The translations under genes and the position numbers were made by a program. From IMG/VR virus record IMGVR_UViG_3300046167_000876: a stretch of 64,000 nucleotides of DNA. One strand, 5' to 3'. Numbering within the stretch: the first letter of the stretch is position 1; each line of letters starts with the position of its first letter. The DNA comes from a virus. Under the pieces are notes generated by a model that made no database searches, had not been told where the DNA came from, and saw only the letters and a program-made list of their open reading frames with translations. Shown here one piece after another: positions 12,294-44,475 of the stretch.

Positions 12294-13565
12294 ATGTACT
12301 GGCTTGTAGAAGACGAGGAGCAGTTAAATGTTTTAATAAATAGTGGTTATAAAGAGGCTTTCATTGAGGTAATACCTTATAATGACACAATACACCCCAC
12401 ACAAAATCATGTTAGTTTAGTGTATATTAGACCAATTGAAGCGAGTAAAGGCTTTATGGTATGCATTACACATAGTGAATGTTTAAATGTGTTAAACACG
12501 CGTATAAACGATTTATTAAATAAATTTGAAGTATTATATTGTCGTGATAAAAAGGAAATATTACACTATTTTCCAATCAAAACTCTTTATGACATAACAC
12601 CACCCCCTACTACGTATATACGACCTACAACACAAACACATGATTTATATTATCGTGAACACAAAGATAATCCGGAGTTAAACTTAATTATACCGATTGT
12701 TAAACATTATGAATTGTGTGAAACGATTTTTAGAGATCTAAAAACAAATATTAACATAGAAAAAACTAAATATGATGAATTCTTTAACAGTAGAGTATCC
12801 GTGGTATTCAACGCTATCGAGAGAAGTGGAATACGTATACACAACAAAACCTTCAATGAATATTTCCATCCCGTTGATGGTGAATACATCTACACTCAGT
12901 TCAACTTAAAAACAACAACAACAAGACCCTCAAATAAATTTAAAAATGTAAATTATGCCGCACTTAATAAAGAAAATGGTTGTAGAAAAAGTTTTATACC
13001 ACGTAATAATAGGTTTGTGGAAATTGATATTTCTGCTTACCATCCTAGCTTGTCTGCTCGTCTTATTGATTATGATTTTGCCGGGGTTGATATTCACGCT
13101 CATTTTGCTTCCTTATATGGAGTGGATTATAAAAAATCGAAAGAACTTACCTTCAAACAGCTCTATGGAGGCGTTTTTGACAATTACAAAGGCCTGGAAT
13201 TCTTTCAAAAAATCGAAAAATACGTAGGAGAACTTTGGAGTAAGTTTCAAAGCGATGGGTTTGTAGAATGTAAGATTTCTGGGTATAGATATGAAAAAGA
13301 AAACTTGGATAATATGAATCCACAAAAGTTATTTAATTACATTTTACAAAATTTAGAAACGTCTACAAATGTGTTGATATTGTGGGATATACTTTGTATA
13401 TTACGAGAATATAAAACGAAACTAGTACTATATACTTATGATTCGTTTTTATTTGATTGGGATGAGAATGAAACAGAATTATTAGAGAAAATAAGAGATA
13501 TTTTCAAAAAATATAAATTAAATATTAAAGAAATAGAAGGTTATGACTACAATTTTACAAAATAG
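12294..13565 (+). CDS. Divergent family A DNA polymerase-like protein
   Basis: TTTRPS, motif A EIDISAYHP, motif B KELTFKQLYGG, NYILQ, motif C YTYDSFLFD. Confidence 0.75.
   Translation: MYWLVEDEEQLNVLINSGYKEAFIEVIPYNDTIHPTQNHVSLVYIRPIEASKGFMVCITHSECLNVLNTRINDLLNKFEVLYCRDKKEILHYFPIKTLYDITPPPTTYIRPTTQTHDLYYREHKDNPELNLIIPIVKHYELCETIFRDLKTNINIEKTKYDEFFNSRVSVVFNAIERSGIRIHNKTFNEYFHPVDGEYIYTQFNLKTTTTRPSNKFKNVNYAALNKENGCRKSFIPRNNRFVEIDISAYHPSLSARLIDYDFAGVDIHAHFASLYGVDYKKSKELTFKQLYGGVFDNYKGLEFFQKIEKYVGELWSKFQSDGFVECKISGYRYEKENLDNMNPQKLFNYILQNLETSTNVLILWDILCILREYKTKLVLYTYDSFLFDWDENETELLEKIRDIFKKYKLNIKEIEGYDYNFTK
12955..13227 (+). CDS. Candidate nested +1-frame membrane protein inside polA-like gene
   Basis: 90-codon ATG ORF with a long hydrophobic stretch; host gene codon usage distorted over this interval. 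Confidence 0.5.
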   Translation: MPHLIKKMVVEKVLYHVIIGLWKLIFLLTILACLLVLLIMILPGLIFTLILLPYMEWIIKNRKNLPSNSSMEAFLTITKAWNSFKKSKNT

Positions 13566-14010
13566 AACTAATACGTATAATGCGAATTATGATGTCATAA
13601 AAGACATCCAAAACGCAGGAGATTTGAATAATAAATTATTTTGTACTTTCACCAACTTAGAAGGGTTAGATGCACTTATTGAAGAAATACAATCGAGATA
13701 TACAATCATATATAATAAAATGTTTGTTTTAGAAATTGTAGATAAAGATGAATATGTGGTTACATATAATGTAGACCAAGGAAATGTACACACAATCCCA
13801 GACAATACTATTTTAGTACATAGAAAAAAGGAATCCAACACCTTATATACAATTAATGCTCTTAACGAACTTATTAAAAAGTTAAATGGTGGTGTAGTAG
13901 ATACTAAATATAAAGTAGATTGGCAACATTATAGAAATTGTGTTTTACTTACACAACATAATGATTTAAACCAATTAAATACAAAAATATATAAAATAAT
14001 CGAAGTATAA
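13543..14010 (+). CDS. Conserved-looking hypothetical protein (start uncertain)
   Basis: KLFCTF, TILVHRKKESNTLYTINALN; between polA and ssb. Confidence 0.7.
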   Translation: MTTILQNRTNTYNANYDVIKDIQNAGDLNNKLFCTFTNLEGLDALIEEIQSRYTIIYNKMFVLEIVDKDEYVVTYNVDQGNVHTIPDNTILVHRKKESNTLYTINALNELIKKLNGGVVDTKYKVDWQHYRNCVLLTQHNDLNQLNTKIYKIIEV

Positions 14011-14040
14011 TTTGGTTCCCCAAATTTCATTTCGTATATT
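14011..14040 (+). promoter_or_regulatory. Promoter TTTG-N20-TATATT upstream of ssb
   Basis: TTTG at 14011, CGTATATT at 14033. Confidence 0.75.
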
Positions 14041-14082
14041 AGGTTACATATAAACAGTTATAATTAAAAATAAGTTACAATT

Positions 14083-14910
14083 ATGGATTTAAATGCACTA
14101 AAGCAAAAATTGGATACCCTCCAATCAAAACCACAGGGTGGTCAAAAGACCGATTACACAACAATTTTTTGGAGACCTACAGTAGGTAAACAACAAATTA
14201 GAATCGTACCATCAGCGTATGATGCTTCCAACCCATTTACTGAGTTGAAGTTTTATTATGGAATTACTAATAAAGTAATGATTTCACCTCTTAATTTTGG
14301 GGAAAAAGACCCTATTGCTCTATTCGCGGGGAAACTACGTGAAGGTGAGTATAATAAAGAGAATTATATACTTGCTAAAAAGCTAGATGCTAAAAACCGA
14401 ATTTTTGTTCCTGTAGTAGTACGTGGAGAAGAAGATAAAGGTGTTAGACTATGGCAATTTGGGAAACAAGTATATGAAGAATTATTAGCACTTGCAGTTG
14501 ATGATGAAATTGGAGATTATACTGACATTGTAAATGGTAGAGATCTTACAGTAGAAACAGTAGGACCAGAATCAACAGGTACTCCTTATAATAAATCATC
14601 AGTTAGAGTTAGATTAAAAACCTCTCCACTTAGTGAAGATGCTACACTAGTAGAAAAATGGACAAATGAACAACCAAACCCAACAGATGGTTTATTTAAA
14701 AGATATTCATTTGAAGACATGAAATCAGCTTTAGAAAAATGGTTATCACCAGAAGAAGATGAAGAAGAAGTAGTTGCTACTCCAGTAGCAGCTAAACCAG
14801 CTACAAACTTTAGTTTAGATACTTCAAAAGCTAAACAAAGTAAAGTAGATCAATTTGATTCTTTATTTGAAAATAAAGCTAGTAATGAAGTTGATGATCT
14901 ACCTTTCTAA
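14083..14910 (+). CDS. Single-stranded DNA-binding protein (T4 gp32-like)
   Basis: FWRP..G...IRIVP, DPI, LWQFGK, D..D...GRDL; acidic tail ending DDLPF. Confidence 0.85.
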   Translation: MDLNALKQKLDTLQSKPQGGQKTDYTTIFWRPTVGKQQIRIVPSAYDASNPFTELKFYYGITNKVMISPLNFGEKDPIALFAGKLREGEYNKENYILAKKLDAKNRIFVPVVVRGEEDKGVRLWQFGKQVYEELLALAVDDEIGDYTDIVNGRDLTVETVGPESTGTPYNKSSVRVRLKTSPLSEDATLVEKWTNEQPNPTDGLFKRYSFEDMKSALEKWLSPEEDEEEVVATPVAAKPATNFSLDTSKAKQSKVDQFDSLFENKASNEVDDLPF

Positions 14911-14912
14911 AT

Positions 14913-15986
14913 ATGGCAAGAAAAGCATCGAAGTCTCTCTCGGCGGCAGTATCCGCCGAGATTAAGAGCAAATTTGACTTAAATAAATTTAAATCATCTA
15001 AAGGTTTAGATAAAAACGTTAAATTTAAGGAACAAAAATGGATACCATTATCTCCTGCTTTTCAAGAAATTGCTGGAGTACCTGGGGTACCCATGGGACA
15101 TATTTCATTACTTAGAGGACATTCTGATACAGGTAAAACAACTGCTTTACTTGAAGCTGCAGTATCAGCACAAAAAATGGGAATATTACCTGTTTTTATT
15201 ATTACTGAGATGAAATGGAATTGGGAACATGCCGCTCAAATGGGATTAGAAGTTAAACTAATCAAAGATGATGAAGGTAATGTTATTGATTATGAGGGAA
15301 ACTTTATTTATGTTGATAGAGAAACTTTACATACTATTGAAGACGTAGCAGCATTTATAATGGATCTACAGAATGAACAGAAAAAAGGTAATCTACCTTA
15401 TGATTTAGCATTTTTCTGGGATAGTATTGGATCAATTCCTTGTGCAATGTCAGTTGAAAAGTTGAAAAACAATAACGAATGGAATGCTGGAGCCATGTCA
15501 ACACAATTTGGTAATACAGTTAACCAGAGTATTGTAATGTCTCGTAAAGAATCATCACCATATACTAATACTTTAATTTGTATTAATAAAGTATGGACAG
15601 CCAAAGCAGAATCACCTATGGGTCAACCTAAAATGATGAATAAAGGTGGAATGGCTATGTGGTATGATGCAACATTTGTAGTTACCTTTGGAAATGTTTC
15701 TAATGCTGGAACTTCTAAAATTAAAGCAATTAAAGGTGGTAAGCAAGTAGAATGGGGTAAAAGAACAAATTTACAGATTGATAAAAATCATGTTAATGGT
15801 ATGCAATCAAGAGGTAAAATTGTTATGACAAATCATGGTTTTATTACAGATACTGATAAAGATAAGAATGCCTACAAGAAAGAACATTCAGATGAATGGA
15901 CAAAAATCTTGGGTGGAGGAACATTCAAAATTGTAGAAGACCAAGAAGATGTAACCCCTGTACTTTACGACGTACAAGACTTATAA
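14913..15986 (+). CDS. RecA/UvsX-like recombinase
   Basis: Walker A GHSDTGKTT, FFWDSIG Walker B, GG.A..Y. Confidence 0.85.
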   Translation: MARKASKSLSAAVSAEIKSKFDLNKFKSSKGLDKNVKFKEQKWIPLSPAFQEIAGVPGVPMGHISLLRGHSDTGKTTALLEAAVSAQKMGILPVFIITEMKWNWEHAAQMGLEVKLIKDDEGNVIDYEGNFIYVDRETLHTIEDVAAFIMDLQNEQKKGNLPYDLAFFWDSIGSIPCAMSVEKLKNNNEWNAGAMSTQFGNTVNQSIVMSRKESSPYTNTLICINKVWTAKAESPMGQPKMMNKGGMAMWYDATFVVTFGNVSNAGTSKIKAIKGGKQVEWGKRTNLQIDKNHVNGMQSRGKIVMTNHGFITDTDKDKNAYKKEHSDEWTKILGGGTFKIVEDQEDVTPVLYDVQDL

Positions 15987-15994
15987 ATAAAAAC

Positions 15995-17035: not shown

Positions 17036-17046
17036 AAAGGTTATAA

Positions 17047-18420
17047 ATGACATTAAATAGTATAAATCAATACGGACATGATTTTCAAATTAAAGTATTA
17101 TCATCTCTACTAACTCATAAAGAATTTCTTACTAATATTCATGATATTATCTCAGAAGAATATTTTGAAAATCAAGCACAAAAATGGGCAATTAAAGAAG
17201 TACTTAAATATTATGATAAGTATCATACTACTCCTTCATTAGATATATTAAAAGTAGAATTACAAAAAGTAGATAATGAAGTATTACAAATTTCTATTAA
17301 AGACCAATTAAAACAAGCATACGTAACTTCAGATGAAGATTTAGAATATGTTCAAGAAGAATTTACTAATTTTTGTAAAAACCAACAATTGAAGAAGGCC
17401 TTAATGTCGTCTGTGGATTTATTAAAAGCAGGCGACTTTGATGGTATTCGTTTTATTGTAGATAATGCTTTAAAAGCAGGACAAGATAAAAATATAGGAC
17501 ATGAATATGTTAAAGATATTGAATCAAGGTATAGAGAAAATTCAAGAGAAACTATACAAACACCTTGGCCGCGTATTAACGATTTACTACAAGGGGGACT
17601 TGGAAATGGAGATTTTGGTCTCATATTTGGTAATCCAGGAGGTGGTAAATCTTGGTCATTAGTAGCTTTAGGAGGACATGCTGTAAGATTAGGATACAAT
17701 GTACTTCATTATACTCTTGAATTAGGAGAAGATTATGTTGGAAAAAGATATGATGCTTTTTTTACTAAAATTCCTGTTAATAAGGTAGATTCTCATAGAG
17801 ATAAAATTGAAGAAATTATCCCTCAACTACCAGGAAAGTTAATAATTAAAGAATATCCAACGGGTAAGGCAACTATCTCAACTATTGAATCACATATTGC
17901 AAAAGCTACAAGTATGGGTTCTAAACCTGATTTAGTAATTATTGATTATGTAGACCTTCTTTCATCAAGAAGAAAAAATAGAGAGCGTAAGGATGAAATT
18001 GATGATATTTATACAAGTACTAAAGGATTAGCTAGACAATTAGATATACCAATTTGGTCTGTTTCACAAGTTAATCGTGCTGGTGCACAAGATAAAGTGA
18101 TTCAAGGAGATAAGGCAGCAGGATCATATGATAAAATTATGATAACTGATTTTTGTATGTCTCTTTCACGTAAAAAAGAAGATAAAATTAACAACACAGG
18201 TAGATTTCATCTAATGAAAAATCGATATGGAATGGATGGAATGACTTTTGGTGTTGAAGCTGATACTTCTACTGGTCATTTTGTAGTTAAAAATGAATAT
18301 TTTGAAGGAGAAGAATCTGAAACATTAGCTCCAACAACACGTTCTAATAAATTTGATACAGACGTAGATGACTTTGATAAACAATTGTTACGTAAGAAAT
18401 TTTTTGAACTAAACTCATAA
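17047..18420 (+). CDS. dnaB: Replicative DnaB-like helicase
   Basis: GNPGGGKS Walker A, YTLEL, IIDYVDL, SQVNR, KNRYG. Confidence 0.9.
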   Translation: MTLNSINQYGHDFQIKVLSSLLTHKEFLTNIHDIISEEYFENQAQKWAIKEVLKYYDKYHTTPSLDILKVELQKVDNEVLQISIKDQLKQAYVTSDEDLEYVQEEFTNFCKNQQLKKALMSSVDLLKAGDFDGIRFIVDNALKAGQDKNIGHEYVKDIESRYRENSRETIQTPWPRINDLLQGGLGNGDFGLIFGNPGGGKSWSLVALGGHAVRLGYNVLHYTLELGEDYVGKRYDAFFTKIPVNKVDSHRDKIEEIIPQLPGKLIIKEYPTGKATISTIESHIAKATSMGSKPDLVIIDYVDLLSSRRKNRERKDEIDDIYTSTKGLARQLDIPIWSVSQVNRAGAQDKVIQGDKAAGSYDKIMITDFCMSLSRKKEDKINNTGRFHLMKNRYGMDGMTFGVEADTSTGHFVVKNEYFEGEESETLAPTTRSNKFDTDVDDFDKQLLRKKFFELNS

Positions 18421-18431
18421 ATAAAAAAATA

Positions 18432-19418: not shown

Positions 19419-19421
19419 AAT

Positions 19422-21137: not shown

Positions 21138-21166
21138 ATAAATAACTATTAAATTTAATTTGTAAT

Positions 21167-21191
21167 GGGGGTCAATTTGACCCCCTTTTTT
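21167..21191 (+). terminator. Intrinsic terminator after nrdA
   Basis: GGGGGTCA-ATT-TGACCCCC followed by TTTTTT. Confidence 0.85.
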
Positions 21192-21224
21192 ATATTTATA
21201 ACAAAATATAAAATTAAGAATAAC

Positions 21225-24200
21225 ATGAAAAAATTATTACTTTGGTTATGCTTTATGCTTCCTTTTTTGAACATAGCCCAAGAAACAGCACCCGTAACCT
21301 TTAGATTAGATGTTAATCAAATCACCACTAATATTCCTAACCCAGATCAAATGCAAGTTTATATTCAAACTAGCGTTACTGGATGGACTGATATACCAAT
21401 GGAAGATGTTGGGGGTAACGGAATTTACAGAAAAAATATTAATATAGGACACCCAACAGATGAAAATGTAGAGGTATTTTATAGGTTTAAGTTAACATCT
21501 TTTGGTAATAATGGGCTACCCTGGACAGGATGGGAAGGAGGTTCTGATGCATCTGACTGTTTATTTGATGTAGCCACAGGAGGTGCTCCAGGAGGACCTA
21601 ATAGTTTAAGAAAAGTAACAGTACCCGAAGAATTGATAGATAATGGTACTTACGTAAATCCTTCAGGAGAATATAAATTAACTCATTGCTTTAATGAGTG
21701 TGGTAATGAACCTTGCCCACCTGAACCTTGTGTAGATGGTTTAACATCATCTAATGCTTATCAACAATGTGTAGAGAATACTCAAGCTTTAATAGTTTTT
21801 GAATGGGAGACAGAATGTACTCCTCAATCTGTCTTATACTCTAATGCAGAAGGAGCAGGGCCTTTTGAATATCAAGTTAATGAAGATGCAACAAACTTTG
21901 GAGTATATGCTGGAAACGGACAAATGCCACCAAATTGGAGTGTAGAGCATCAATTAATAGTTAAATTTACAGATGGAAGTGAATCAGAACCTATTTTATA
22001 CACCCCTACCCCTTGTATTGCAGGATGTACAGATCCAAATTCTGATGCTTATAACCCATGGGCAACAGTAGATGATGGTTCTTGTTCTGGAACAAATTGT
22101 GACCCGGACACAGAACATCAAATAACAATGCAGATTACATTAGATAATTGGCCAGGTGAAACTTCATGGACAATGAATAGTGGAGGTATTATAGGAGCAG
22201 TTACAGATGGAACATATAATTTTAACGATATAGGAAAAACATTTACCTATAATTTCTGTATAGATAAAAATACAGGATTTGAATTTATTATTAATGATAC
22301 TTATGGAGATGGTTTAGGTGGTACTACATCTGGAGGAACTATAGACGGTAATGTTGTAATATACGATTGTAATGGAGATATTATTTGGGAATTACCTGAA
22401 CCTGACTTTGGAGATGTAGCATACTCAGGACAACAATTTGGAGTTGATTGTGAAGGAACAGAAGAAATTTATGGATGTACAGATCCAGCTTATCAATCAT
22501 ATAATCCTGATGCTACTATAGATGATGGTTCTTGTTCTGAACTTCATGTTGTAGGTTGTATGGATGAAGATTCAATTAACTACAATCCAGATGCTACTAA
22601 ACAAGAATTAGTTCCAGTTTGTGAATATAATTTAGTAGTAAGAGATGCAGCATCAGATGGATGGGGTAATTCTTTTATAGGAGTTGCTCAAGGAGGAGTT
22701 AGTTTAGGAACTTATACTTTAGGACCTGGAATAGAAGAACAAGTCTGGCCTTTAACTTTAAACTCAGATGAAGAAGTAATAGTATATTATTTTGAAGTAG
22801 GTAATCCTCAAACAACACCAGAAGAATTAAATTTCCAAACTTTACAAAATTCATTCCTCATAGTAGATTCAGATGAACAAGTATTACTAGACGGTGGTAC
22901 TAACCCATTTGAAGATAATGGACAAGGAGCCTTACAAAATTTTGAAGCACCATTTTTTGAAAAATATTCAGCTTTACCATTTTGTGGTACAGTTTGTATT
23001 CCAATTGTAGAAGGGTGTATGACTGAAGGTTCATTAAACTATAATCCTGAAGCTAATGTAGATGATGGTTCTTGTATTCCTTATATAGAAGGTTGTATGA
23101 ATCCATTAGCATTTAACTACAACCCAGATGCCACAGTAGATGATGGTTCTTGTATTGAAGTAATTGTAGGTTGTATGGACCCAGATTCATTTAACTATAA
23201 CCCAGAAGCTAACACCCCAGGTGATTGTATTCCAGTTATAGAAGGTTGTATGGATCCAACATCATTTAATTATAATGAAAATGCAAATGTAGATGATGGT
23301 TCATGTATCCCTGTAATAGAAGGATGTATGGATGTAAATTCAATTAATTATAATCCTGATGCTAATACTGATGATGGAAGTTGTATTCCAATTGTAGAAG
23401 GTTGTACAGATCCAGATTCATTTAATTATAACCCTAATGCAAATGTAGATGATGGAAGTTGTGTACCTGTAGTATTCGGTTGTATGGACCCAGATTCATT
23501 TAATTATAATCCAGATGCTAACACAGACAATGGAACTTGTGAACCAGTAGTATTCGGTTGTACTGATCCTGATTCATTTAACTACAACCCAGATGCTAAT
23601 ACAGACAATGGAACTTGTGTTCCCCGTAATTCTAGGATGTACAGACAACACATCATTTAACTACAATCCAGAAGCTAATACTAATGATGGTTCTTGTATT
23701 CCTATATTAGCAGGTTGTACAGATCCAAACTCATTTAATTATAATGAACTAGCTAATACTGATGATGGTTCCTGTATACCAGTTGTCTATGGATGTACAG
23801 ATAATACTTCTTTAAACTACAACCCAGAAGCTAATACTGATGATGGTAGCTGTATCCCAATTCTGTATGGTTGTATGGACCCAGATTCATTTAATTATAA
23901 TCCTTTAGCAACAGTTGATGATGGTTCCTGTATAGCAATAGTAGAAGGATGTACTGATAACACATCATTAAATTACAACCCTGATGCAAATGTAGATGAT
24001 GGTAGCTGTATTCCTATTTTATACGGCTGTATGGACCCTGATTCATTTAACTATAATGCACTAGCAACTGTTGACGATGGTAGCTGTATTCCAATTGTAA
24101 CAGGTTGTCACAGATCCAGATGCATTAAATTTTAATCCAGATGCGAATACAGAAGATTTTAGTTGTATAGAAAAAGTTTATGGTTGTATGGATCCTAACT

Positions 24201-24745
24201 CGATAAATTATGACCCTGAAGCTAATATAGATAACGGTAGTTGTATAACAGCAGTAGTAGGATGTACAGATCCAGAATCATATAACTATAATCCTGAAGC
24301 TAACGTTTCAGACCCAGATGCTTGTTTATATGATGCAGGCTGTATAGATGGTCCTGGTAATCCATATTGGTTAAATGATAATTGCTATGCTTGGGTAATT
24401 GATGTGGATCAATATTGTTGTGATAACGAATTTGATTCTATATGTCAGGATATGTATAATTATTGTGAAGATGGATGGCCTGATGGATTTGATTTAAATT
24501 CAATTCAATCTCAATTTTCTAGAATTAATAATATAATTGTGCATCCAAATCCAACATCTGGAATAATAAACGTATCTTCTAATATAGAAGGTGTAACATT
24601 TGAAGTAAGGGATTTATTAGGTAAAATAATTGTACCTGAGTCTAGTGGTAATACAATTGATCTATCAAAATCAGCTGCTGGAATATATGTCTTAACAATT
24701 AAGAATGGAACACAAACATATAATAAAAAAATAATTAAAGAATAA
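21225..24745 (+). CDS. Secreted Cys-repeat protein with T9SS type A sorting domain (about 1172 aa after correcting two 1-nt insertions near 23622 and 24109)
   Basis: Signal peptide MKKLLLWLCFMLPFLNIA; 20 GC(M/T)D...NYNP.A..DDGSC repeats; C-terminal HPNPTSG...DLLGK...IDLS...GIYVL...KKIIKE. Confidence 0.85.
23013..24337 (+). repeat. Coding tandem repeat, 17 units of about 78 bp (26 aa)
   Basis: GC(M/T)DxxSxNYNPxAxxDDGSCIPxx units counted directly; three further dispersed copies at about 22020-22620. Confidence 0.95.
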
Positions 24746-24746
24746 A

Positions 24747-25813
24747 ATGAAAAAATTATTAATACTATTTTTAGTAATACCGTTTTTAGGTTTTAGCCAA
24801 GAGCCAGAATCTAAATTTAAAAAAGAATTAAAAAAAACATTTAAGTTTTCAACTATATTTGCTGCAGTAAATGGGGGTACTTCATTAGCCGATAAAAATA
24901 CCTATTCTGTAAATACGGGTACATTAGTACCTGGAGTAATAGAAACACCTTTTGATTATTCTTTATCATTAGGGATTAGAAAAATTGCTCGATTCCAATA
25001 TGAAAATAGAGCTAATGTATTTTACAATGGTACAGAAGAATCTTATTCAGATAATGCAACATTAGGTAAAATAAAAGGATTTGAGTTTTTATTTGAAGCT
25101 GATTATAGAAGAATTCAAGGGATCGAATATTTAGATCAACATCATTTTTTAAGATATGTAGCTGATGATTGGGTAGCTAAAGTAGAATACTTAGTAGGTG
25201 GTTTTATTGACATAGAATACTTCCAAGCATCACAAAGATATAAAAGAATATTACTAAAGAATTTTCAGTTAATGTAGGTGCTGCCCAAAGATTAGCAAGA
25301 CCTTATGGATATGATCCTTTACAAGAATGGATGTTGAGTAATGGTAATTTACATTATACATGGTTAGCAATTCAAGAAGGATACGAAGTAGAATTTAATG
25401 GAATAGGAGGAGAAACCTATTTAGACCCTTCAGGTAATGTTGTAGCAACAAGTACTGAAGTTTGGGAAGAAGTAATTATACCACAAGTATTAGTTGATTA
25501 TGTAGAGAAAAAAACAGATGCAGCCCCATTAAGATTAGAATACTCATTAATATTAGGATTTGATTATTATAAGTATACGAAAAACTTTTGGTTACATGCC
25601 TGGGGTAATGTAATGCCCTACCACATAAAAAATGGGGATAAATTTTCTTTTCATAATTATAATGGTGGGCAATGGGTAGATTATTCTGGAGGATTAATAT
25701 TTGGTTATAAATTAACTAAATCATTAGGATTATTTGCAGAAGGAACTTATAATCAATATTGGAATAGAAATTGGCATAATTTTTCAATGGGAGTTAACTA
25801 CATAATTTTTTAA
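24747..25813 (+). CDS. Putative outer-membrane beta-barrel protein (about 355 aa after correcting a 1-nt deletion near 25243)
   Basis: Signal peptide; aromatic alternating strands; C-terminal FSMGVNYIIF resembles a BAM beta-signal; fragments join in frame with one added A. Confidence 0.6.
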
Positions 25814-28185: not shown

Positions 28186-28524
28186 ATGTATAGATACAAC
28201 GCAAAATTAGATCGGGTTGTTGACGGAGATACTGTCGATGCCTTAGTAGACTTAGGATTTAATACCTGGAAAAAGGTAAGAGTTCGAATGATGGGGATGA
28301 ATGCCCCTGAATCTCGTACAAGAGATTTAGAAGAAAAAAAACGTGGATTAGCTGCTAAAGCAAGATTAATTGAATTATTAGGAGATGGTAATTTTATTTT
28401 ACAATCTCATGGGGTTGGAAAATATGGTAGATGTCTAGGTACCCTATTTGTAAAAGATACAGATATAAATAAAACTTTAATTAATGAGGGACATGCAACA
28501 GAATACTTTGGGGGTGCTAGATAA
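28186..28524 (+). CDS. Thermonuclease (SNase) family protein
   Basis: RVVDGDT, VR..G.NAPE, GKYGRCL, IN..L..EG.A. Confidence 0.88.
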   Translation: MYRYNAKLDRVVDGDTVDALVDLGFNTWKKVRVRMMGMNAPESRTRDLEEKKRGLAAKARLIELLGDGNFILQSHGVGKYGRCLGTLFVKDTDINKTLINEGHATEYFGGAR

Positions 28525-29695
28525 GATAAAACAAGGAATGTTTCCATTCCTTATTGGATTTTCTGCCCTGTCAGTTTCAGCTTCAGCTGCTTTCTATTCA
28601 GTTAGTGGCTTAAGCAAACTTTTTGCAGGAGCAAGTTTAGAAGTAATTATAATGGCAGGTTCATTAGAATTTGCTAAATTAGTTACAGCTTCACTTTTAT
28701 ACCAATATTGGGATACAATTAATAAATCTTTACGTACTTATTTATCTATAGCAACTATTATACTAGTATTAATTACTAGTATGGGTATTTATGGATTTTT
28801 AAGTGCTGCTTATCAAGAAACGTATTCTAAATTATCAACTATAGAAAATCAAAAAGGTTTTATTCAAAAGAAAATTGAATTTTATCAAAATGATGTAAAT
28901 CGATATGATGAGGAAATTAAAAGAATATCTAGTAATATTAGTACTTTATCTAATGCAAAAGCTTCGACCATCCAAGTACGAGACACCACGGTATCTGGAG
29001 GCTTTAGACAAACAATATCCACAACTGAGCTTAGAATGGCGCAGAGTCGTATTAACATTGAGGAGGAGAATCGTAAGTTGGCGCAAGAAAAACGAACTAT
29101 AGCATCTGATAGTCTTCAAAAATTCCAATTACAAGTATTAGATTTAGATAATAATAATGAAGTGGCTGGAGAATTAGGACCACTACAGTATTTATCGGGT
29201 TTAACGGGTACTTCTATGGATAAGATTATAAATTGGTTATTACTTATTATAATATTTGTATTTGATCCTTTAGCAATATCTCTTGTAATAGCAGCCAACT
29301 TTGCTTTTACTCAAGCTTATCCAAAAAAGAAATATAGAAAAAATTTATATGGAGAAAAAATAGAAGACATTGAAGTTAAAGATGCTGAGGAAATCCAAAC
29401 CCAAGATGAGTTTATGAAAAATTTAGATAATCTTGAAAAGATTAAAGATTGGGAAGCAGCAGAACGAAGAATGGAAATTATAGGTCAAAATGGAAACGAT
29501 GGAGAACATTACTCAGGATTAGACTTAAATAATGATGGTGTTATTAATGAAAAAGATATTGAAATTGCTAAAAATAGAATAAAAGAAATTGATAGTATAT
29601 TAGAAAAAACTCCAAATTTATCTCGAGAATGGGCTAAACGTTTATCTATTGAAAGAAGAAAATTAGATGATGATGAAAATACAAAAATTTATTAA
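28484..29695 (+). CDS. Multi-TM coiled-coil protein with C-terminal EF-hand/dockerin-like loop (start uncertain)
   Basis: N-terminal TMs, coiled coil, IIFVFDPLAI, DLNNDGVINEKD. Confidence 0.7.
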   Translation: MRDMQQNTLGVLDKIKQGMFPFLIGFSALSVSASAAFYSVSGLSKLFAGASLEVIIMAGSLEFAKLVTASLLYQYWDTINKSLRTYLSIATIILVLITSMGIYGFLSAAYQETYSKLSTIENQKGFIQKKIEFYQNDVNRYDEEIKRISSNISTLSNAKASTIQVRDTTVSGGFRQTISTTELRMAQSRINIEEENRKLAQEKRTIASDSLQKFQLQVLDLDNNNEVAGELGPLQYLSGLTGTSMDKIINWLLLIIIFVFDPLAISLVIAANFAFTQAYPKKKYRKNLYGEKIEDIEVKDAEEIQTQDEFMKNLDNLEKIKDWEAAERRMEIIGQNGNDGEHYSGLDLNNDGVINEKDIEIAKNRIKEIDSILEKTPNLSREWAKRLSIERRKLDDDENTKIY

Positions 29696-30289: not shown

Positions 30290-30472
30290 ATGAATAATCT
30301 AGCACAAAAATCTTTAGTTATTGGTATTATAGTATTAGCAATGATATTTATTCCATTACTTATCAAAGCAGTATTTTGGATATTATTACAATTATTTAAT
30401 TTTCCATTCCAATCGTTATTAATCTCAATTATAGTTATATGTTTGATATCCCTCTTACCAGAAAAGAAGTAG
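30290..30472 (+). CDS. Small membrane protein
   Basis: Two TM segments; downstream of promoter TGTG-N20-TATATT at 30237-30266. Confidence 0.55.
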   Translation: MNNLAQKSLVIGIIVLAMIFIPLLIKAVFWILLQLFNFPFQSLLISIIVICLISLLPEKK

Positions 30473-30948
30473 ATAAACAATTATCACAATATCAAAAAAT
30501 AAACTATAACCAGTTTAGATGGTGGAGGAGTTATCAACCAAAAAATAAACCACTTGATAATCGCAAACCACTTCGTGAGCGTATATTCAATGGTGATTTT
30601 GATTATTCATGTTATAAAGCTCAACAATATCAAGTCGAATATCAATTGAATGATATACTAAAAGAGTGTGGTATGGATTACGCAAAGTATTTAGAAAAAA
30701 CCCCCGTTATTAGAGCACGAAGAAAACGTTTAATGGAAGATTTTGAAAAAGATGAAACTGAAAGATTACGTTCTTTAACAGTTGAATTTACAAAATACTT
30801 TAGATGTAATAGAGAACAAGTTGAAGAAGAAATGTTAAAATGTAGTGGCTCCCTAATAGATCTTTATTATATTATAGAAGAAAAATATAAAATAGTCCAT
30901 ATGCCTTATCCTTTAAAGCGTAGAGGACGACCCAAAAAAGTTATATAA
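30439..30948 (+). CDS. Hypothetical protein
   Basis: 169-aa ORF with C-terminal RRGRPKK AT-hook-like motif. Confidence 0.65.
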   Translation: MFDIPLTRKEVDKQLSQYQKINYNQFRWWRSYQPKNKPLDNRKPLRERIFNGDFDYSCYKAQQYQVEYQLNDILKECGMDYAKYLEKTPVIRARRKRLMEDFEKDETERLRSLTVEFTKYFRCNREQVEEEMLKCSGSLIDLYYIIEEKYKIVHMPYPLKRRGRPKKVI

Positions 30949-31746
30949 ATGAAAGTATCACACGAAGTACCTAGATGTTTACTAAAAGCATCACAAGAAT
31001 TTAATGATTATGATTATTGCTTACCTCATCTATTAGATCAAGATGAAGAATATAAACAATATTTTTATAATGCTAAAGAAGAAGGACGTTATGTTATCAT
31101 GGATAATTCACTTCATGAATTAGGAGAAGCATATGATTATGATAGATTAAGATATTGGGTCAATGAATTAGAACCAAATGAATTTATTGTACCAGATGTT
31201 TGGATGAATTGTTCTCAAACAGCGGCACAAGCTAAATATTGGAAACAATTTAAATATCCTAAAAAAACTAAACTCACAGCTGTAATTCAGGGTGAAGATA
31301 AGAATCAAGCTTATCTATGTGCTACTTTATTAGCAAATTTAGGATATAAAAAATTATGTGTATCTTATGGTGCTACTTGGTATAATGATTTTTTCCCACA
31401 TACTAACGCAGATATGGGAAAAGCATTAGGTAGAGTACGATTTGTACAAGGTTTATTTAAGATAAAACATTTAAAAGATATTAAATTTCATTTATTAGGT
31501 TGTTCAATTCCACAAGAATTTGGTTGGTATGATGATGGTTTTTCATCAAGAATTGAATCAATTGATACTTCTAATCCAGTAATGGCAGCTTTAGATGGAA
31601 CTAAATATAATAGTAATGGAATGAATTATAAACCAAATGCTAATATGAATGATTTTTTTGATGTTAAATTTGAAGATATTAAATACGAAGATATTATTTA
31701 CAACACAACACAATTTAGAAGAATTAATAATTTAAAAATCAAATAA
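30949..31746 (+). CDS. TGT/DpdA-like guanine transglycosylase-fold protein
   Basis: MDNS, VPDV, VIQG, HLLG and SIDTS correspond to TGT TIM-barrel catalytic motifs; adjacent to que genes. Confidence 0.7.
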   Translation: MKVSHEVPRCLLKASQEFNDYDYCLPHLLDQDEEYKQYFYNAKEEGRYVIMDNSLHELGEAYDYDRLRYWVNELEPNEFIVPDVWMNCSQTAAQAKYWKQFKYPKKTKLTAVIQGEDKNQAYLCATLLANLGYKKLCVSYGATWYNDFFPHTNADMGKALGRVRFVQGLFKIKHLKDIKFHLLGCSIPQEFGWYDDGFSSRIESIDTSNPVMAALDGTKYNSNGMNYKPNANMNDFFDVKFEDIKYEDIIYNTTQFRRINNLKIK

Positions 31747-31748
31747 TT

Positions 31749-31943
31749 ATGGCAAAGTTAACAAGAAATGTAAATTACGCAAATTACAGATGGGAAGAAT
31801 ATGTGCTAACAGAAGAAGAATTAGCACAATGGAAAACAGGTGATGAAGATCTCCAACAAGAAATCATAGATAATGCAGATTGGGACCTAGTAAGAGATAA
31901 ACCAATTGATGATTATAGTGAACCAGAATTTGTAGAAGAATAA
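31749..31943 (+). CDS. Small acidic hypothetical protein
   Basis: 64-aa ORF tightly packed between neighbours. Confidence 0.6.
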   Translation: MAKLTRNVNYANYRWEEYVLTEEELAQWKTGDEDLQQEIIDNADWDLVRDKPIDDYSEPEFVEE

Positions 31944-31947
31944 AGAT

Positions 31948-32133
31948 ATGGCAGAATTTATAAGACACGCACTAGGACTTTGTGGAGAACACTATCATCC
32001 AAACTTATGGACTCTTTTAATAGGAGGAGTTGGATTTTCAACTATTTTTTCGTATGTTCGATCATATATAAAATGTAAATTTAATCAAGCGTTAGCCTAT
32101 ACGCGAAATACCTGGCAAATTTTAAATAAGTAA
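31948..32133 (+). CDS. Small membrane-associated hypothetical protein
   Basis: H.LGLCGEH.HPNL followed by a TM segment. Confidence 0.55.
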   Translation: MAEFIRHALGLCGEHYHPNLWTLLIGGVGFSTIFSYVRSYIKCKFNQALAYTRNTWQILNK

Positions 32134-32136
32134 ATT

Positions 32137-32925
32137 ATGGCACATTGTGTAGTAAGTTTAAGTGGTGGAATGGATAGTAGCACCCTATTGTTAAGAGCTA
32201 TCGAGAAATATGATACTGTAACAGGTATCTCATTTGACTATGGTCAAAAACACAGAGTAGAGCTAGAGAGAGCTCAATCATTAATTGATTACCTTGCAAG
32301 TAAAGGTCACAAAGTAAATTATCGTCAAATCAAATTAGATGGATTAGTAGATCTACTAGACTCAGCTTTGGTTACAGGTGGAGATGATGTACCAGAAGGA
32401 CATTATGAGCAAGATAATATGAAAGAAACAGTTGTTCCTAACAGAAATAAAATGTTTGCTTCTATTACTCAAGCAGTTGCATTATCTGTAGCAAATAGAA
32501 CAGAAGATGTTTGTGATATTGCTTTAGGTATTCATGCTGGTGATCATGCAGTTTATCCTGATTGTAGACAAGAATTTAGAGATGCAGATGATGCAGCTTT
32601 TAGAATTGGAAACTGGGATGCAGATAGAGTAGGTTACTTTACACCTTATTTAGATACTGATAAATTTGGTATTCTACAAGATGGAGAAAAATTATGTGAA
32701 ATTTTAGGTATTGATTTTGATGAAGTTTATAAAAGAACAAATACTTCTTATAAGCCTTATCCTTCGGGAAATAGTGATTATAAGTCTGCTTCTAGTGTTG
32801 AGAGGATTGAGGCTTTTATTGCTCTTGGCAGAAAAGATCCCGTACAGTATGAGGATGAAACTGGAGAAGTTGATTACGAAGTAGCAGAAACCCATGTAAA
32901 ACAAGTATTAGCTGAATATGAATAA
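32137..32925 (+). CDS. queC: 7-cyano-7-deazaguanine synthase
   Basis: SGGMDS PP-loop, FDYGQKH..E, VPNRN, YPDCR.EF; lacks the canonical C-terminal CxxC Zn ligands. Confidence 0.92.
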   Translation: MAHCVVSLSGGMDSSTLLLRAIEKYDTVTGISFDYGQKHRVELERAQSLIDYLASKGHKVNYRQIKLDGLVDLLDSALVTGGDDVPEGHYEQDNMKETVVPNRNKMFASITQAVALSVANRTEDVCDIALGIHAGDHAVYPDCRQEFRDADDAAFRIGNWDADRVGYFTPYLDTDKFGILQDGEKLCEILGIDFDEVYKRTNTSYKPYPSGNSDYKSASSVERIEAFIALGRKDPVQYEDETGEVDYEVAETHVKQVLAEYE

Positions 32926-33088: not shown

Positions 33089-33105
33089 TAACCAAAATTT
33101 AAAAT

Positions 33106-33811: not shown

Positions 33812-33853
33812 GTTATAATAGTGAATGAAAAACCACTTAAAAAAATTAACAAT

Positions 33854-34639
33854 ATGCACAAACAATTGAAACGTATTGAGGATTACGATAAAAATCTTCC
33901 GATTGTAGAAGTTTATACTGCAGTCCAATCTGAAGGCTCTAGAGCAGGATACCCCACAGTAGTAATTAGAACAACAGGATGCACTCACAGATGTTATTTC
34001 GGTGAAGGTGGTTGGTGTGATAGTTGGTATACAAGTATCCACCCAGAAAAAGGCCAATTTAATTTTAATAATATTATACAAAAGTATAAAGATAATCCTC
34101 ATATTAAAGAGATGATGCTTACTGGTGGTTCACCTACTATGCATCCCGCTTTAGTAAATGAGTTAACCCATTTTGCACATGAAAATGATATATTCATTAC
34201 TATCGAAACTGAAGGATCTCATTTCCTCCCCACTGATTATCCTATTAATCTTTTGTCAATTTCTCCTAAGTTTAGTAATAGCGTTCCCGTTGTTGGTGTT
34301 GCTACTCCTCAAGGAGGAATTACAGACGAAAGGATGGTTAAAAAACATAATTCGAAAAGGTTGAATTATGAAGCAATGAAACAATCAATTGCTTACCACT
34401 CAGACTATCATATTAAACCAGTATGGGATGGTAAAGATGAAGATGCGTTAGCTGAAATTATGGATTGTTTAGAAAAACTTGAAGTATCCCAAGATAAAGT
34501 TTGGTTTATGCCCGCAGGTGATTCAAGAGAAGCATTATTTAAATCATACCCCATATTATTTGATTGGGTAAGAGATAATGGTTACAGAATGACTTGGAGA
34601 CCCCACATTATAGCATTTGAAGATCAAAGAGAAGTATAA
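33854..34639 (+). CDS. queE: 7-carboxy-7-deazaguanine synthase (radical SAM)
   Basis: VQSEG...G, RT.GC..RC...WCDS, LTGG.P, IETEG, SPK. Confidence 0.9.
   Translation: MHKQLKRIEDYDKNLPIVEVYTAVQSEGSRAGYPTVVIRTTGCTHRCYFGEGGWCDSWYTSIHPEKGQFNFNNIIQKYKDNPHIKEMMLTGGSPTMHPALVNELTHFAHENDIFITIETEGSHFLPTDYPINLLSISPKFSNSVPVVGVATPQGGITDERMVKKHNSKRLNYEAMKQSIAYHSDYHIKPVWDGKDEDALAEIMDCLEKLEVSQDKVWFMPAGDSREALFKSYPILFDWVRDNGYRMTWRPHIIAFEDQREV
34179..34364 (+). CDS. Candidate nested +1-frame membrane protein inside queE
   Basis: 61 aa with LIILLIFCQFLLSLVIAFPLLVLLLL hydrophobic stretch. Confidence 0.45.
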   Translation: MKMIYSLLSKLKDLISSPLIILLIFCQFLLSLVIAFPLLVLLLLKEELQTKGWLKNIIRKG

Positions 34640-35703: not shown

Positions 35704-35708
35704 GAGAA

Positions 35709-36167: not shown

Positions 36168-36169
36168 AT

Positions 36170-36367
36170 ATGGAATATTGGCAAATTAAAACTCAAAATG
36201 AATTTGAGAATGAAAGAGGTAGGATACAAAAAACAACTGAATTATATTTAGTAGTAGCAGTATCAGCAACGGATGCAGAAGCTAAGATGTACAAACATAA
36301 TGAAGGTATGTCTAATTTTAGAGTTGTAGAAGTAAAGAAAACCAAATTTTTAGAAGTAATAAGCTAA
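36170..36367 (+). CDS. DUF4494-like small protein
   Basis: K..E.YLV.AVS.TDAEAK pattern typical of the Bacteroidota family. Confidence 0.55.
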   Translation: MEYWQIKTQNEFENERGRIQKTTELYLVVAVSATDAEAKMYKHNEGMSNFRVVEVKKTKFLEVIS

Positions 36368-36906
36368 TGGGAAAACAATTAGAATTATTTAGCAAAGCCG
36401 ACGTGCCCTTTGTTAATGAAGTAGAAACTTTTAACCGCACGTTCGGAAAACCAAACAATTATGAACCGACAATACCAGAAAAAAAGGAGTGGGAATTCGT
36501 ATACGACTTTGTACTTGAAGAATTGGAAGAATATAGACAGGCTTGCGAAAACGGAGACATCGTGGAAGTTTTGGATGCTCTGTGTGATATTGCTTACGTT
36601 TCCCTTGGGAACGGTACTATGTTACACGGCCTTAAAGATAAGATATGGCCTGCATATCAAGAAGTACAAGGAAGCAATATGTCGAAGTCTTGTAGCACTA
36701 AAGAGGAAGCCATGGAAACTGTCACCCTCCGCTCTAAAGAACAAGATGAGCCATGTCACTTTGAACAGATCGAAGACCGATTCGTAGTATACAGAACACG
36801 TGATCGTAAAGTAATGAAATCAATTAATTACTATAGACCAGATTTAAAACAATTCTTTACAGGAGATGAATTACAAAAATTCCATAAACCAGCAACCTTT
36901 ATTTAA
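36367..36906 (+). CDS. MazG-like all-alpha NTP pyrophosphohydrolase (DR2231/PRA-PH type)
   Basis: EELEE...EVLDALCDIAYV..G, EV..SNMSK, KVMK. Confidence 0.85.
   Translation: MGKQLELFSKADVPFVNEVETFNRTFGKPNNYEPTIPEKKEWEFVYDFVLEELEEYRQACENGDIVEVLDALCDIAYVSLGNGTMLHGLKDKIWPAYQEVQGSNMSKSCSTKEEAMETVTLRSKEQDEPCHFEQIEDRFVVYRTRDRKVMKSINYYRPDLKQFFTGDELQKFHKPATFI
36461..36787 (+). CDS. Candidate nested +1-frame basic single-TM protein inside MazG-like gene
   Basis: 108-codon ATG ORF; TM FWMLCVILLTFPLGTVLCYTAL; host codon usage shifts to G/C-ending codons over the overlap. Confidence 0.5.
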   Translation: MNRQYQKKRSGNSYTTLYLKNWKNIDRLAKTETSWKFWMLCVILLTFPLGTVLCYTALKIRYGLHIKKYKEAICRSLVALKRKPWKLSPSALKNKMSHVTLNRSKTDS

Positions 36907-38918: not shown

Positions 38919-38920
38919 TT

Positions 38921-40928: not shown

Positions 40929-40951
40929 AATAAACTTCGTATATTACAACT

Positions 40952-41674: not shown

Positions 41675-41694
41675 ACACATATGTATAATAGAAC

Positions 41695-42224: not shown

Positions 42225-42256
42225 TTCGTATATTAACGTCTAAATAAATAAGTTAT

Positions 42257-42574
42257 ATGATAAAAAAAAGAAAGTCTATTCAGACTATTACCGATCCCTT
42301 ACTAGAACCATTCTTTATTACTAAGGACGAATACAGTTATACTGTAAAACAAAATGTGACATCTGATGCCAATCATTTTAGGGCTAAAGGTAAAGCAAAA
42401 ACTTATGAAAAATCCCTATATTATTATGCTAATTTTGAACAGGCTTTACAAAAAATAGCTAAATTACAAGCTGATATTGAAGATTTTGATAGTTTAGATG
42501 AATATATTAACAATTATACAAAAATAAGTACTAACATTAAAAATTATACAAATGGAATTAGAAGCATTGTTTGA
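42257..42574 (+). CDS. Hypothetical protein
   Basis: 105-aa ORF between hsp20 and groES. Confidence 0.7.
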   Translation: MIKKRKSIQTITDPLLEPFFITKDEYSYTVKQNVTSDANHFRAKGKAKTYEKSLYYYANFEQALQKIAKLQADIEDFDSLDEYINNYTKISTNIKNYTNGIRSIV

Positions 42575-42863
42575 TGCCGTTATTGTAAAACCCCAAGAAG
42601 TTGAAGAAACTACTTATGGGTCAATTATTGTGCCTGATTTAGGTAAAGATAGAAATGAGCATGGAACTGTAGTAGCAGTAGGTCCTGGTAAACCAACTGT
42701 AACTGGAACTTTTTTACCAACAACTGTAAAGGTTGGGGATAAAGTAGTTTTACCAACAGTAGGTTTTACTAAATTACAACATTTAGGAGATGAATATTAT
42801 ATTGGCCCCGAAAATCAAATTTTAGCAAAAATTAACCAAACAGAGAAAAAAGAAGATGAATAA
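42552..42863 (+). CDS. groES: Co-chaperonin GroES
   Basis: LFDAVIVK, G.IIVPD, GTVVAVGPG, VKVGDKV. Confidence 0.92.
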   Translation: MELEALFDAVIVKPQEVEETTYGSIIVPDLGKDRNEHGTVVAVGPGKPTVTGTFLPTTVKVGDKVVLPTVGFTKLQHLGDEYYIGPENQILAKINQTEKKEDE

Positions 42864-44475
42864 ACAAGTTACATTAGGTTCAAAAGCTAGAACCAATTTA
42901 GTAAAAGGAATTGATACCTTAGCTGATGCTGTAGTATCAACACTAGGACCAAATGGTCGAAATGTAGTAATAGCAAACGAAATGGGAGTTCCACAATCAA
43001 CAAAAGATGGAGTTACAGTTGCTAAATCAATTAAACTAAAAGATCCTGAACAAGAATTAGGAGTACAATTAGTAAAACAAGCTGCAATTAAAACAGCTGA
43101 AAAAGCAGGTGATGGTACAACTACATCTACTTTATTAGCTCGTGAAATGGTAAAAGCAGGATTAAATGCTTTAAATAATAATGAAAATGCAGTCCAAATT
43201 AAACGTGATATTGATTCTACAGTTGAAAAAGTAGTTAACAATCTTAGAAACAATATTTCAGAAGATATCTCAGGAGAAGAACAATTAGAACAAATTGCAA
43301 CTATATCAGCAAATAATGATCCAGAAACCGGAAAATTAATTGCTACTGCTATTGACAAAGTAGGAATGGAAGGAGTTGTTCATATAGAAGAATCCCGAAC
43401 AGGAGAAACATATTTGGAAACAGTAGAAGGTATGCAATTTGATAGAGGTTATAAATCCCCGTATTTTGTAACTGATAATAATACAATGACTGCTACTTTA
43501 GATAATCCACTTATATTAATTGCGGATAGTAAAATTACTCAAGTAAAAGAATTATTACCTATTCTTGAAAGTGTTTCTTCACAAGCAAAATCATTACTTA
43601 TTATAGCAGAAGATATTGATCAAGAAGCATTAGCAACTCTTATTGTTAATAAAATGAGAGGTACTATGAAAGTATGTGCTGTAAAAGCCCCAGATTTTGG
43701 TGATAGACGTAAATTAGTTTTAGAAGATATTGCAGTCACAACAGGTGGTGTAGTATTTGATAAACAAAAAGGAATGAAAATGGATAAATTTAGTTGGGAA
43801 TGGTTTGGAGAAGCTAGAACCGCAACTATAGATAAAGAAAAGACAACACTGGTAGATGGAAAAGGAACAATTGAATCAATTGAAACACGTATTGAAGAAC
43901 TACAACAACAAATTGACAAAGCAGACTCACCGTTCGAAATCGAAAAACTCCAAGAAAGACTTGCAAAATTTGTCGGAGGAGTAGCAGTTATTCATGTAGG
44001 TGGAAATACTGAAACTGAAATGAAAGAGAAAAAAGATAGGGTTGATGATGCTTTACATGCAACAAAAGCCGCTATTGAAGAAGGTATAGTACCTGGTGGT
44101 GGAACAGCATTATTATATGCATCATCAGGATTAGAAGCTAAAACAACAGGAGCAGCTATTGTAATAGAAGCTTGTGCTAAACCCTTTAATCAAATTTTAG
44201 TTAATGCTGGGTTTGATGAAGTTAAGGGGCAAATTTTAGCTGATAATTTAGTTAACTCTGGTAATGATACTTGGGCTGGATTTAATATTAAAAATGAAAA
44301 AACAGTTAATATGAAAGAAGCTGGTATTATCGATCCAACTAAAGTAGCAAGAACTGCATTGCAAAATGCGGCATCTGTTGCTGGTACAGTATTACTAACA
44401 GAATGTACTGTAGTAAATGAAATTACTGAGGAAAATCCTCAACAACAAGTTGATCCATCAATGATGGGTTATTAA
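42856..44475 (+). CDS. groEL: Chaperonin GroEL
   Basis: TLGPNGRNV, TKDGVTVAK, GDGTTT, GMQFDRGYKSPYF, KLQERLAK, GIIDPTKV. Confidence 0.97.
   Translation: MNKQVTLGSKARTNLVKGIDTLADAVVSTLGPNGRNVVIANEMGVPQSTKDGVTVAKSIKLKDPEQELGVQLVKQAAIKTAEKAGDGTTTSTLLAREMVKAGLNALNNNENAVQIKRDIDSTVEKVVNNLRNNISEDISGEEQLEQIATISANNDPETGKLIATAIDKVGMEGVVHIEESRTGETYLETVEGMQFDRGYKSPYFVTDNNTMTATLDNPLILIADSKITQVKELLPILESVSSQAKSLLIIAEDIDQEALATLIVNKMRGTMKVCAVKAPDFGDRRKLVLEDIAVTTGGVVFDKQKGMKMDKFSWEWFGEARTATIDKEKTTLVDGKGTIESIETRIEELQQQIDKADSPFEIEKLQERLAKFVGGVAVIHVGGNTETEMKEKKDRVDDALHATKAAIEEGIVPGGGTALLYASSGLEAKTTGAAIVIEACAKPFNQILVNAGFDEVKGQILADNLVNSGNDTWAGFNIKNEKTVNMKEAGIIDPTKVARTALQNAASVAGTVLLTECTVVNEITEENPQQQVDPSMMGY

Follow-up and report, generated by a model that had tools for sequence, protein, structure and literature searches.

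The question raised by this locus is whether open reading frames (ORFs) lying on the same strand as several core genes, but in their +1 frame, are protein-coding genes in their own right or chance products of an AT-rich sequence. The stretch analysed (the window) comprises 64,000 nucleotides (nt) of the IMG/VR virus record IMGVR_UViG_3300046167_000876. It is AT-rich phage DNA (29% G+C) in which almost all long ORFs are on the + strand, and its gene order is syntenic with that of the Flavobacterium phage vB_FspM_immuto (hereafter immuto). An earlier note, made from this single sequence, had listed eight nested ORFs, two in a polA-like gene (ORF1 and ORF2) and one each in the genes for DnaB, a membrane protein (the 28484 gene, containing the 28905 ORF), QueC, QueE, a MazG-like protein (the mazG ORF) and GroEL, and had read them as an overprinted repertoire of small membrane or basic proteins. 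All eight were confirmed, each starting with an ATG, ending with a stop and offset by +1 from its host gene (Table 1). Four of them, namely the mazG ORF, polA ORF1, polA ORF2 and the 28905 ORF, are probably genuine overprinted same-strand protein-coding genes, born inside older enzyme or membrane-protein genes in a Flavobacteriia-phage lineage, a reading to which a probability of about 0.7 is given. Signs of selection on the +1 frame were weak for a shortened form of the queE ORF and were not found for the dnaB, queC and groEL ORFs, so that about half of the proposed repertoire stood.

When the window was first set against immuto, 2-6 stops were found in each of seven ORFs, while the eighth, the mazG ORF, was intact, including its ATG. 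A total of ~480 IMG/VR loci were taken around polA, dnaB, queE, mazG and groEL, and codon alignments were made for the 52 window genes having at least eight distinct relatives. For each adjacent codon pair, the off-frame stops observed were scored against those expected from both amino acids and the codon usage of the window, a model considered calibrated because observed and expected values were similar outside the candidate ORFs. An unbiased scan of the 52 genes in five alternative frames placed at the top the +1 frames of mazG, polA, the 28484 gene and queE, together with two antisense segments that are by-products of the same avoidance of TTA and CTA; all other segments scored 1.43 (the background maximum) or less. 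Moreover, the choice of ORFs that happen to be open in the window was corrected for with a null set formed by all 56 open stretches of at least 30 codons in the window's alternative frames. In this set, polA ORF1, the mazG ORF and the 28905 ORF showed the lowest ratios of observed to expected stops (O/E), and polA ORF2 at full length gave the next value, while its first 56 codons alone gave 0.06. The background of 52 open stretches formed a continuum from 0.26 to 1.38, inside which the queE, queC, dnaB and groEL ORFs fell. The same ranking was obtained when only dicodons differing from the window were counted, which removes the bias of picking ORFs open in the window (0.06/0.96, 0.06/2.13, 0.27/2.52 and 0.43/2.08 for the four supported ORFs). 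Among representatives below 80% nt identity, these four ORFs were open in 13/15, 23/24, 20/24 and 8/14. The alignments show that selection maintains each of the four frames as open and preserves its ATG, and the earlier suggestion to look for conservation in related phages was borne out for these four, while the dnaB, queC and groEL ORFs behaved as chance would have it.

Table 1. Nested ORFs and their host genes in the window. All nested ORFs are in the +1 frame of the host gene; aa, amino acids; TM, transmembrane; O/E, ratio of observed to expected stops in the null set.
Feature	Coordinates	Strand	Length	Description	Segment in stop scan; stops per sequence (observed vs expected)	O/E
mazG ORF	36461..36787	+	108 aa	one TM helix (~residues 36-59) between a basic N-terminus and a basic C-terminal tail	36466-36760; 0.15 vs 6.9 (n=103)	0.07
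polA ORF1	12772..12909	+	45 aa (59 aa in some relatives)	rich in Ser, Thr, Tyr and Pro; lacks a TM segment		0.04
polA ORF2	12955..13227	+	90 aa in window	conserved core, first 56 codons (12955-13122); two-TM hairpin ending WIIKNRKN	12963-13086; 0.05 vs 4.0 (n=97)	0.26 (full length)
28905 ORF	28905..29102	+	65 aa	hydrophobic over a short stretch at the N-terminus (YLVILVLYLM), basic and amphipathic thereafter	28898-29078; 0.19 vs 4.2 (n=36)	0.09
queE ORF (borderline)	34179..34364	+	61 aa in window	only first 38 codons (34179-34292) open in every relative	34193-34289; 0 vs 2.0 (n=55)	0.33
dnaB ORF (chance)	17501..17662	+				0.39
queC ORF (chance)	32720..32884	+		open in 31/56 relatives		0.39
groEL ORF (chance)	43856..43984	+		open in 42/84 relatives		0.54
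polA-like host gene	12294..13565	+	423 aa	small family-A DNA-polymerase-like protein; 41% identity to immuto26A_1, annotated 'DNA polymerase family A'		
28484 host gene	28484..29695	+	403 aa	multi-pass membrane protein, central coiled-coil-like region (translation: hydrophobic segments and heptad-like middle)		
MazG-like host gene	36367..36906	+	179 aa	MazG-like nucleoside triphosphate pyrophosphohydrolase; Pfam PRA-PH E=2.4e-10 (aa 19-83); PHROG 671 nucleotide pyrophosphohydrolase E=1.2e-27		

The strongest case is the mazG ORF, which was intact in ~165 of 168 distinct relatives, immuto included. It was open in 100 of the 103 sequences of the window clade (broken in three) and, at a host identity of 66-78%, intact in every one of the 64 distinct immuto-clade sequences; the O/E among representatives below 85% nt identity was 0.07, and the nested ATG was kept in 100 of 102 sequences. 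The products in relatives are 103-137 aa long and have a TM core, W(K/R)FW(M/T)LC..LLMFPLGTVLCY, followed by a Lys/Arg-rich tail. An AlphaFold2 (AF2) model of the product was all-helical, with a mean predicted local distance difference test (pLDDT) score of 71, rising to 80-89 over residues 30-80. Separately, the cultured phage vB_FspM_immuto_2-6A has an intact 117-aa nested ORF in immuto26A_63 (MW353175.1, 33446-33799), where no feature is annotated. None of the nested ORFs is listed by gene callers or in the immuto GenBank record.

Inside the polA-like gene, ORF1 was open in 93 of 96 relatives; its first ATG was kept in 64 of 96, and a second Met, one codon on, in 83 of 97. A Trp of the +1 product was kept in 94 of 97 sequences while the host residue shifts among Val, Leu and Met through the rare codons GTG, TTG and ATG, and C-ending codons form a run whose limits coincide with those of ORF1. 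For ORF2, the conserved core was open in 92 of 96 relatives (0.06 stops observed vs 3.98 expected) and its ATG was kept in all 96. However, the full length was open in only 39 of 96, the tail varying so that the total comes to 56, 64, 86, 90 or 103 aa. The view that the 90- and 108-codon cases carry the argument therefore holds for the 108-codon mazG ORF and, within the 90-codon polA ORF2, for the first 56 codons only. ORF2 has the highest +1 hydropathy in the window (3.41), and the start contexts of the ORF1 and ORF2 ATGs rank at the 95th and 99th percentile of internal ATGs, respectively, and so look like those of true genes. Furthermore, the two ORFs share the +1 frame with two stops between them (12907-12957), and 23 distinct relatives have a longer ORF1 whose TAA stop lies only 3 nt before the ORF2 ATG, an arrangement that suggests possible translational coupling of the two. 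As for the 28905 ORF, it is lineage-restricted, being open over its full window length in 23 of 35 relatives with the ATG kept in 29 of 35; the product had 61-65 aa in 29 of 34 distinct products, and one had 78 aa.

A second line of evidence comes from codon choice, given that the third base of a host codon is the second base of the overlapping +1 codon. In the supported ORFs, the synonymous third base of the host follows the hydropathy of the +1 product. A-ending codons represent 43% of four-fold codons in all genes, 4% in the mazG TM segment, 8% in the 28905 hydrophobic stretch and 10% in the polA ORF2 TM region, whose lowest windows (0.6-3%) are the minimum of the whole data set. Conversely, C-ending codons make up 20% of the two-fold NNY codons in all genes, 64% in the polar polA ORF1 and 57% in the polar N-terminus of the mazG ORF. 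Conserved rare codons, defined as majority codons with a genome usage <0.25 that are yet present in at least 80% of the sequences (base rate 1.6%), were scanned for blind to the ORFs, and exactly three regions were singled out: polA 12700-12910, mazG 36490-36700 and 28880-29090. Such codons occupied 9 of 21 informative columns in polA ORF1, 13 of 80 in the mazG ORF and 7 of 46 in the 28905 ORF (Fisher P=7.5e-6 for the last), and a scan for A-poor four-fold sites, also blind to the ORFs, landed on the same regions. Inside the supported ORFs, and in the mazG ORF in particular, Leu, Ile and Val before a purine are encoded by CTT/CTC/TTG, ATC/ATT and GTG/GTC, compared with an overall usage of 70% for TTA and 57% for GTA, while before a pyrimidine they keep the usual TTA/ATA/GTA; immediately outside the ORF, GTA before G is the commonest form. 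Stops were not depleted in the +2 frame of mazG, and RNA folding was ordinary (z-scores of -1.2 and +0.4). The enrichment in G/C- or T-ending codons reported earlier was real and conserved in relatives for the mazG, both polA and the 28905 ORFs, but not for those in dnaB, queC and groEL. These codon patterns are predicted by selection on a second protein and would not result from stop avoidance alone, from base composition or from RNA structure. The alignments show selection setting the host synonymous sites, in favour of hydrophobic +1 residues in the TM segments and of Ser, Thr, Pro or Trp elsewhere.

Each of the four candidates thus lies inside a longer recognisable gene in another frame, with its own frame kept open, its start codon conserved and the synonymous sites of the host constrained. 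Of the four predicted products, two would be membrane proteins, that of the mazG ORF bitopic with basic tails and that of polA ORF2 a two-TM hairpin, and the other two would be short peptides, soluble for the most part. The characterization of the products as small membrane or basic proteins suits the mazG ORF (one TM helix, basic flanks) and polA ORF2 (two TM helices), but not polA ORF1, whose 45 residues are Ser/Thr/Tyr-rich and slightly acidic. By analogy with other small phage membrane proteins, it might be guessed that the envelope of the infected host is where the membrane products act; the roles in exclusion, anti-defence or lysis timing put forward in the earlier note are likewise guesses.

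Several observations weigh against regarding these ORFs as genes. No usable family, fold or language-model match was found for any of the nested products in Pfam, PHROGs, the ESM Atlas or Foldseek-BFVD; the literature searched contained no report of these nested ORFs. The start contexts of the mazG and 28905 ATGs are ordinary (49th-71st percentile of internal ATGs), roughly one relative in three has a broken 28905 ORF, and the polA ORFs are absent from immuto itself. Plain synonymous pairwise diversity was only weakly lower in the ORFs (0.30 vs 0.37 for mazG), in a test that is itself weak because strong codon bias leaves little range. Moreover, in a dNN/dNS analysis in the manner of OLGenie, which applies dN/dS to overlapping genes, the ORFs were not set apart from the controls; these also give 0.6-0.75, so that the analysis does not discriminate for the +1 frame. 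Finally, exact P values are not given because the relatives are metagenomic and not phylogenetically independent.

The evidence available within the single genome was less decisive. The drop of TTA, GTA and ATA before purines, to which the earlier note had drawn attention, is real, but as evidence from one genome it is circular: NTA before a purine, or NTG before A, makes a +1 stop, so that any open +1 stretch lacks both. Stretches of TM-grade hydrophobicity were found in the four products for which they had been claimed (polA ORF2, queC, queE and mazG; maximum 19-residue Kyte-Doolittle values of 2.1-3.4), although the queC and queE ORFs are not conserved at full length. The accompanying caveat that +1 frames of AT-rich genes tend to be hydrophobic was justified, with a mean hydropathy of 0.37 in the +1 frame vs -0.43 in the host frame; 19-residue hydropathy reached at least 1.6 in 6.7% of all +1-frame windows vs 0.8% in the host frame. 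A synonymous shuffle test, as the earlier note had proposed, was carried out on 92 genes with 500 shuffles, counting +1 ORFs starting with ATG. Only the long ORFs exceeded chance within this genome (2 observed vs 0.06 expected for at least 90 codons, and 4 vs 0.9 for at least 60), while the 40-60 codon class did not (8 vs 3.7 for at least 50 codons, P=0.02; 14 vs 9.8 for at least 40 codons, P=0.07). The chance of the stretch being open, given the amino acids and codon usage, was ~6e-4 for the mazG ORF, ~1.4e-3 for the 90-codon polA ORF and 0.015-0.14 for the other six. An argument from a single genome cannot separate real from chance nested ORFs, as half of those listed failed the comparative test.

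Among the remaining four ORFs, that of queE is borderline. Its segment 34193-34289 scores above all background segments, and A-ending codons make up 15% of its four-fold codons, just below the first percentile. Of 50 distinct relatives, 47 carry a version of 38-53 aa, two a version of 61 aa and one a version of 97 aa, and the full window length was open in 3 of 54 relatives; at best, the queE ORF is a shorter conserved ORF of 38-53 aa. In dnaB, queC and groEL, AT-rich codon usage has produced the ORFs by chance. For dnaB, 2.3 stops were observed in the most distant relatives vs 2.7 expected, and immuto has three stops; for queC, synonymous diversity was higher inside the ORF than outside, and immuto has four stops. 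No conserved rare codons were found in the dnaB and groEL ORFs. Two +1 open stretches outside the original list, 15010-15213 (67 codons) and 47250-47444 (64 codons), were not conserved (O/E of 0.53 and 0.83, respectively).

Regarding how the frames would be reached, the nested ATGs sit 1-12 codons past an upstream +1 stop, and conserved ATGs so close after a stop fit internal initiation on the host mRNA. Ribosomes would start internally at these ATGs on the mRNA of the host gene, and those that have translated polA ORF1 may re-initiate at ORF2. The Bacteroidetes -7 promoter motif TANNTTTG was considered as well, but it occurred at chance frequency and was not found just upstream of the nested starts.

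The alternative that survives best, though improbable, accepts that the +1 frames are coding but has them entered by ribosomal frameshifting or transcriptional slippage, giving fusions, for instance one in which the A7 run at 36479-36485 links residues 1-40 of MazG to the TM tail. That run belongs to the sequence GAA AAA AAG (36478-36486), six codons past the mazG nested ATG, and several database proteins are indeed chimeras of the MazG N-terminus and the +1 frame that switch at it. However, in the three source contigs fetched, the neighbouring genes were fragmented too, the switch points vary and some chimeras switch back, so that they look like homopolymer indel errors in long-read, indel-rich assemblies. 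Database proteins matching the mazG +1 product, being mostly such chimeras, were accordingly set aside as evidence for either expression or frameshifting. A programmed -1 frameshift site of the dnaX type (A AAA AAG) in mazG was rejected as well: a -1 slip of this type leads into the stop-filled +2 frame and not into the +1 frame, and the run is not specially conserved, since codon usage already accounts for the AAA seen in the middle Lys position of 44 out of 57 sequences. Entry by frameshifting also leaves aside the conservation of the ATGs (100/102 for mazG and 96/96 for polA ORF2) shortly after an upstream +1 stop, which in the case of polA ORF2 leaves almost no space for a shift site.

Still less probable is a constraint that is real but non-coding, such as RNA structure, a DNA element or the tuning of translation speed, with the open +1 frame as a by-product. 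The C-ending codon runs of polA ORF1 remove +2 stops locally as well, and the mild reduction in plain synonymous diversity would agree with it. On the other hand, which codon is used varies with the first base of the codon that follows, in exactly the way that avoidance of +1 stops predicts, and as the +1 hydropathy changes along a single ORF, the third base alternates between a T-rich and a C-rich class. The +1 Trp of polA ORF1 persists through the changes of the host residue, the odd codon usage of this ORF starts and ends at its start and stop, folding energy is ordinary and the mazG +2 frame is not depleted. The weakest alternative, that all eight ORFs are chance openings of long hydrophobic +1 frames shared by descent only, suits the dnaB, queC and groEL ORFs, the lack of significant enrichment of 40-60 codon ORFs in the shuffles, the hydrophobicity of +1 frames and the O/E of 0.3-0.5 that chance ORFs picked as open in the window still give in relatives, but it has effectively failed, and is very improbable, for the four supported ORFs, since three of them (0.04-0.09) are clear of the 52-ORF background, depletion remains in the changed dicodons, both ORF-blind scans pick the same regions and the mazG ORF survives in a second clade.

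If they are genes, the nested ORFs would belong with overprinted genes such as phiX174 E within D and lambda Rz1 within Rz, and what is unusual is their position inside enzyme genes of a large double-stranded DNA (dsDNA) phage. PhiX174 is a 5.4-kb single-stranded DNA phage under strong genome-size pressure, with gene E in D, and B and K in A and C, E being a proven lysis protein. The likeness to E/D lies in a small single-TM protein that is encoded in the +1 frame and on the same strand, entirely within an essential gene to which it is unrelated, and that arose by de novo overprinting. By contrast, the genome here is of the ~160-kb dsDNA class, the hosts are MazG-like and PolA-like genes, and the mazG-nested product has long basic flanks on either side of the TM helix, unlike E. 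In relation to lambda Rz/Rz1, the 28905 ORF also lies in the +1 frame of a membrane/coiled-coil gene, whose PHROG match to Rz-like proteins is weak (E=0.047); however, this host is a 403-aa multi-pass protein rather than a ~150-aa type-II i-spanin, and no lysis cassette adjoins it. A spanin reading of the 28905 product was discarded: no Cys occurs in it or in its 34 distinct relatives, hence no lipobox, and without Cys it is not an Rz1-like lipoprotein. In the same way, polA ORF2 resembles class II holins in its small size, its pair of adjacent TM helices and its charged C-terminus, but it matches no holin family in Pfam or PHROG, it lies inside a replication gene and not beside an endolysin, and immuto has a separately annotated holin. 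In bacteria, overlapping genes have been proposed from ribosome profiling (Ribo-seq) and evolutionary analysis, as long alternative-frame ORFs in annotated genes (PMC4683798, PMC8850804). For those cases expression data exist, their taxonomic spread is narrow and several of them are antisense, while the candidate phage ORFs are on the same strand and are supported by ~35 to 165 diverged sequences each.

With respect to the host genes, the MazG-like protein is 70% identical to immuto26A_63 (annotated as nucleoside triphosphate pyrophosphohydrolase). The polA-like protein had no Pfam or PHROG match, and the 28484-29695 protein had only weak Pfam and PHROG matches, with no homologue found in the first 45 kb of immuto, which were searched. 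The comparative test covered the genes with enough relatives; ~40 others with fewer than eight relatives in the fetched loci (window 1-12260, 21165-25277 and 53000-64000) fell outside it, and in the window alone they showed no remarkable +1 or +2 open stretch (expected stops of 3.5 or fewer). Elsewhere, the synonymous diversity among relatives of the two small genes at 31749-31943 and 31948-32133 was about half of what is usual (0.19 vs 0.35), and that of the two genes preceding them (30439-31746) was low too (0.27-0.28). A recent sweep, recombination or extra constraint could account for the low diversity at 30439-32133.

In immuto DNA, G is fully replaced by a 7-deazaguanine derivative (PMC10516641), and the report describing this treats the 7-deazaguanine cluster and mentions no overlap. 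A wider proposal, which is tentative and on balance unlikely, is that immuto-like Flavobacteriia phages carry a hidden set of de novo proteins arisen by +1 overprinting in core genes, the MazG-nested membrane protein, located in the 7-deazaguanine DNA-modification cluster, being tied to that module or to host takeover. Shine-Dalgarno-independent initiation in Bacteroidota, together with the stop-poor, hydrophobic +1 frame of AT-rich genes, might favour such overprinting. If the nested ORFs are translated, recoding or 'synonymous' engineering of their host genes would not be neutral. Moreover, a large dsDNA phage without an obvious need for compression would be making new membrane proteins by overprinting in its replication and nucleotide-metabolism genes, and, as immuto and its Flavobacterium host are in culture, this would be a tractable system for gene birth.

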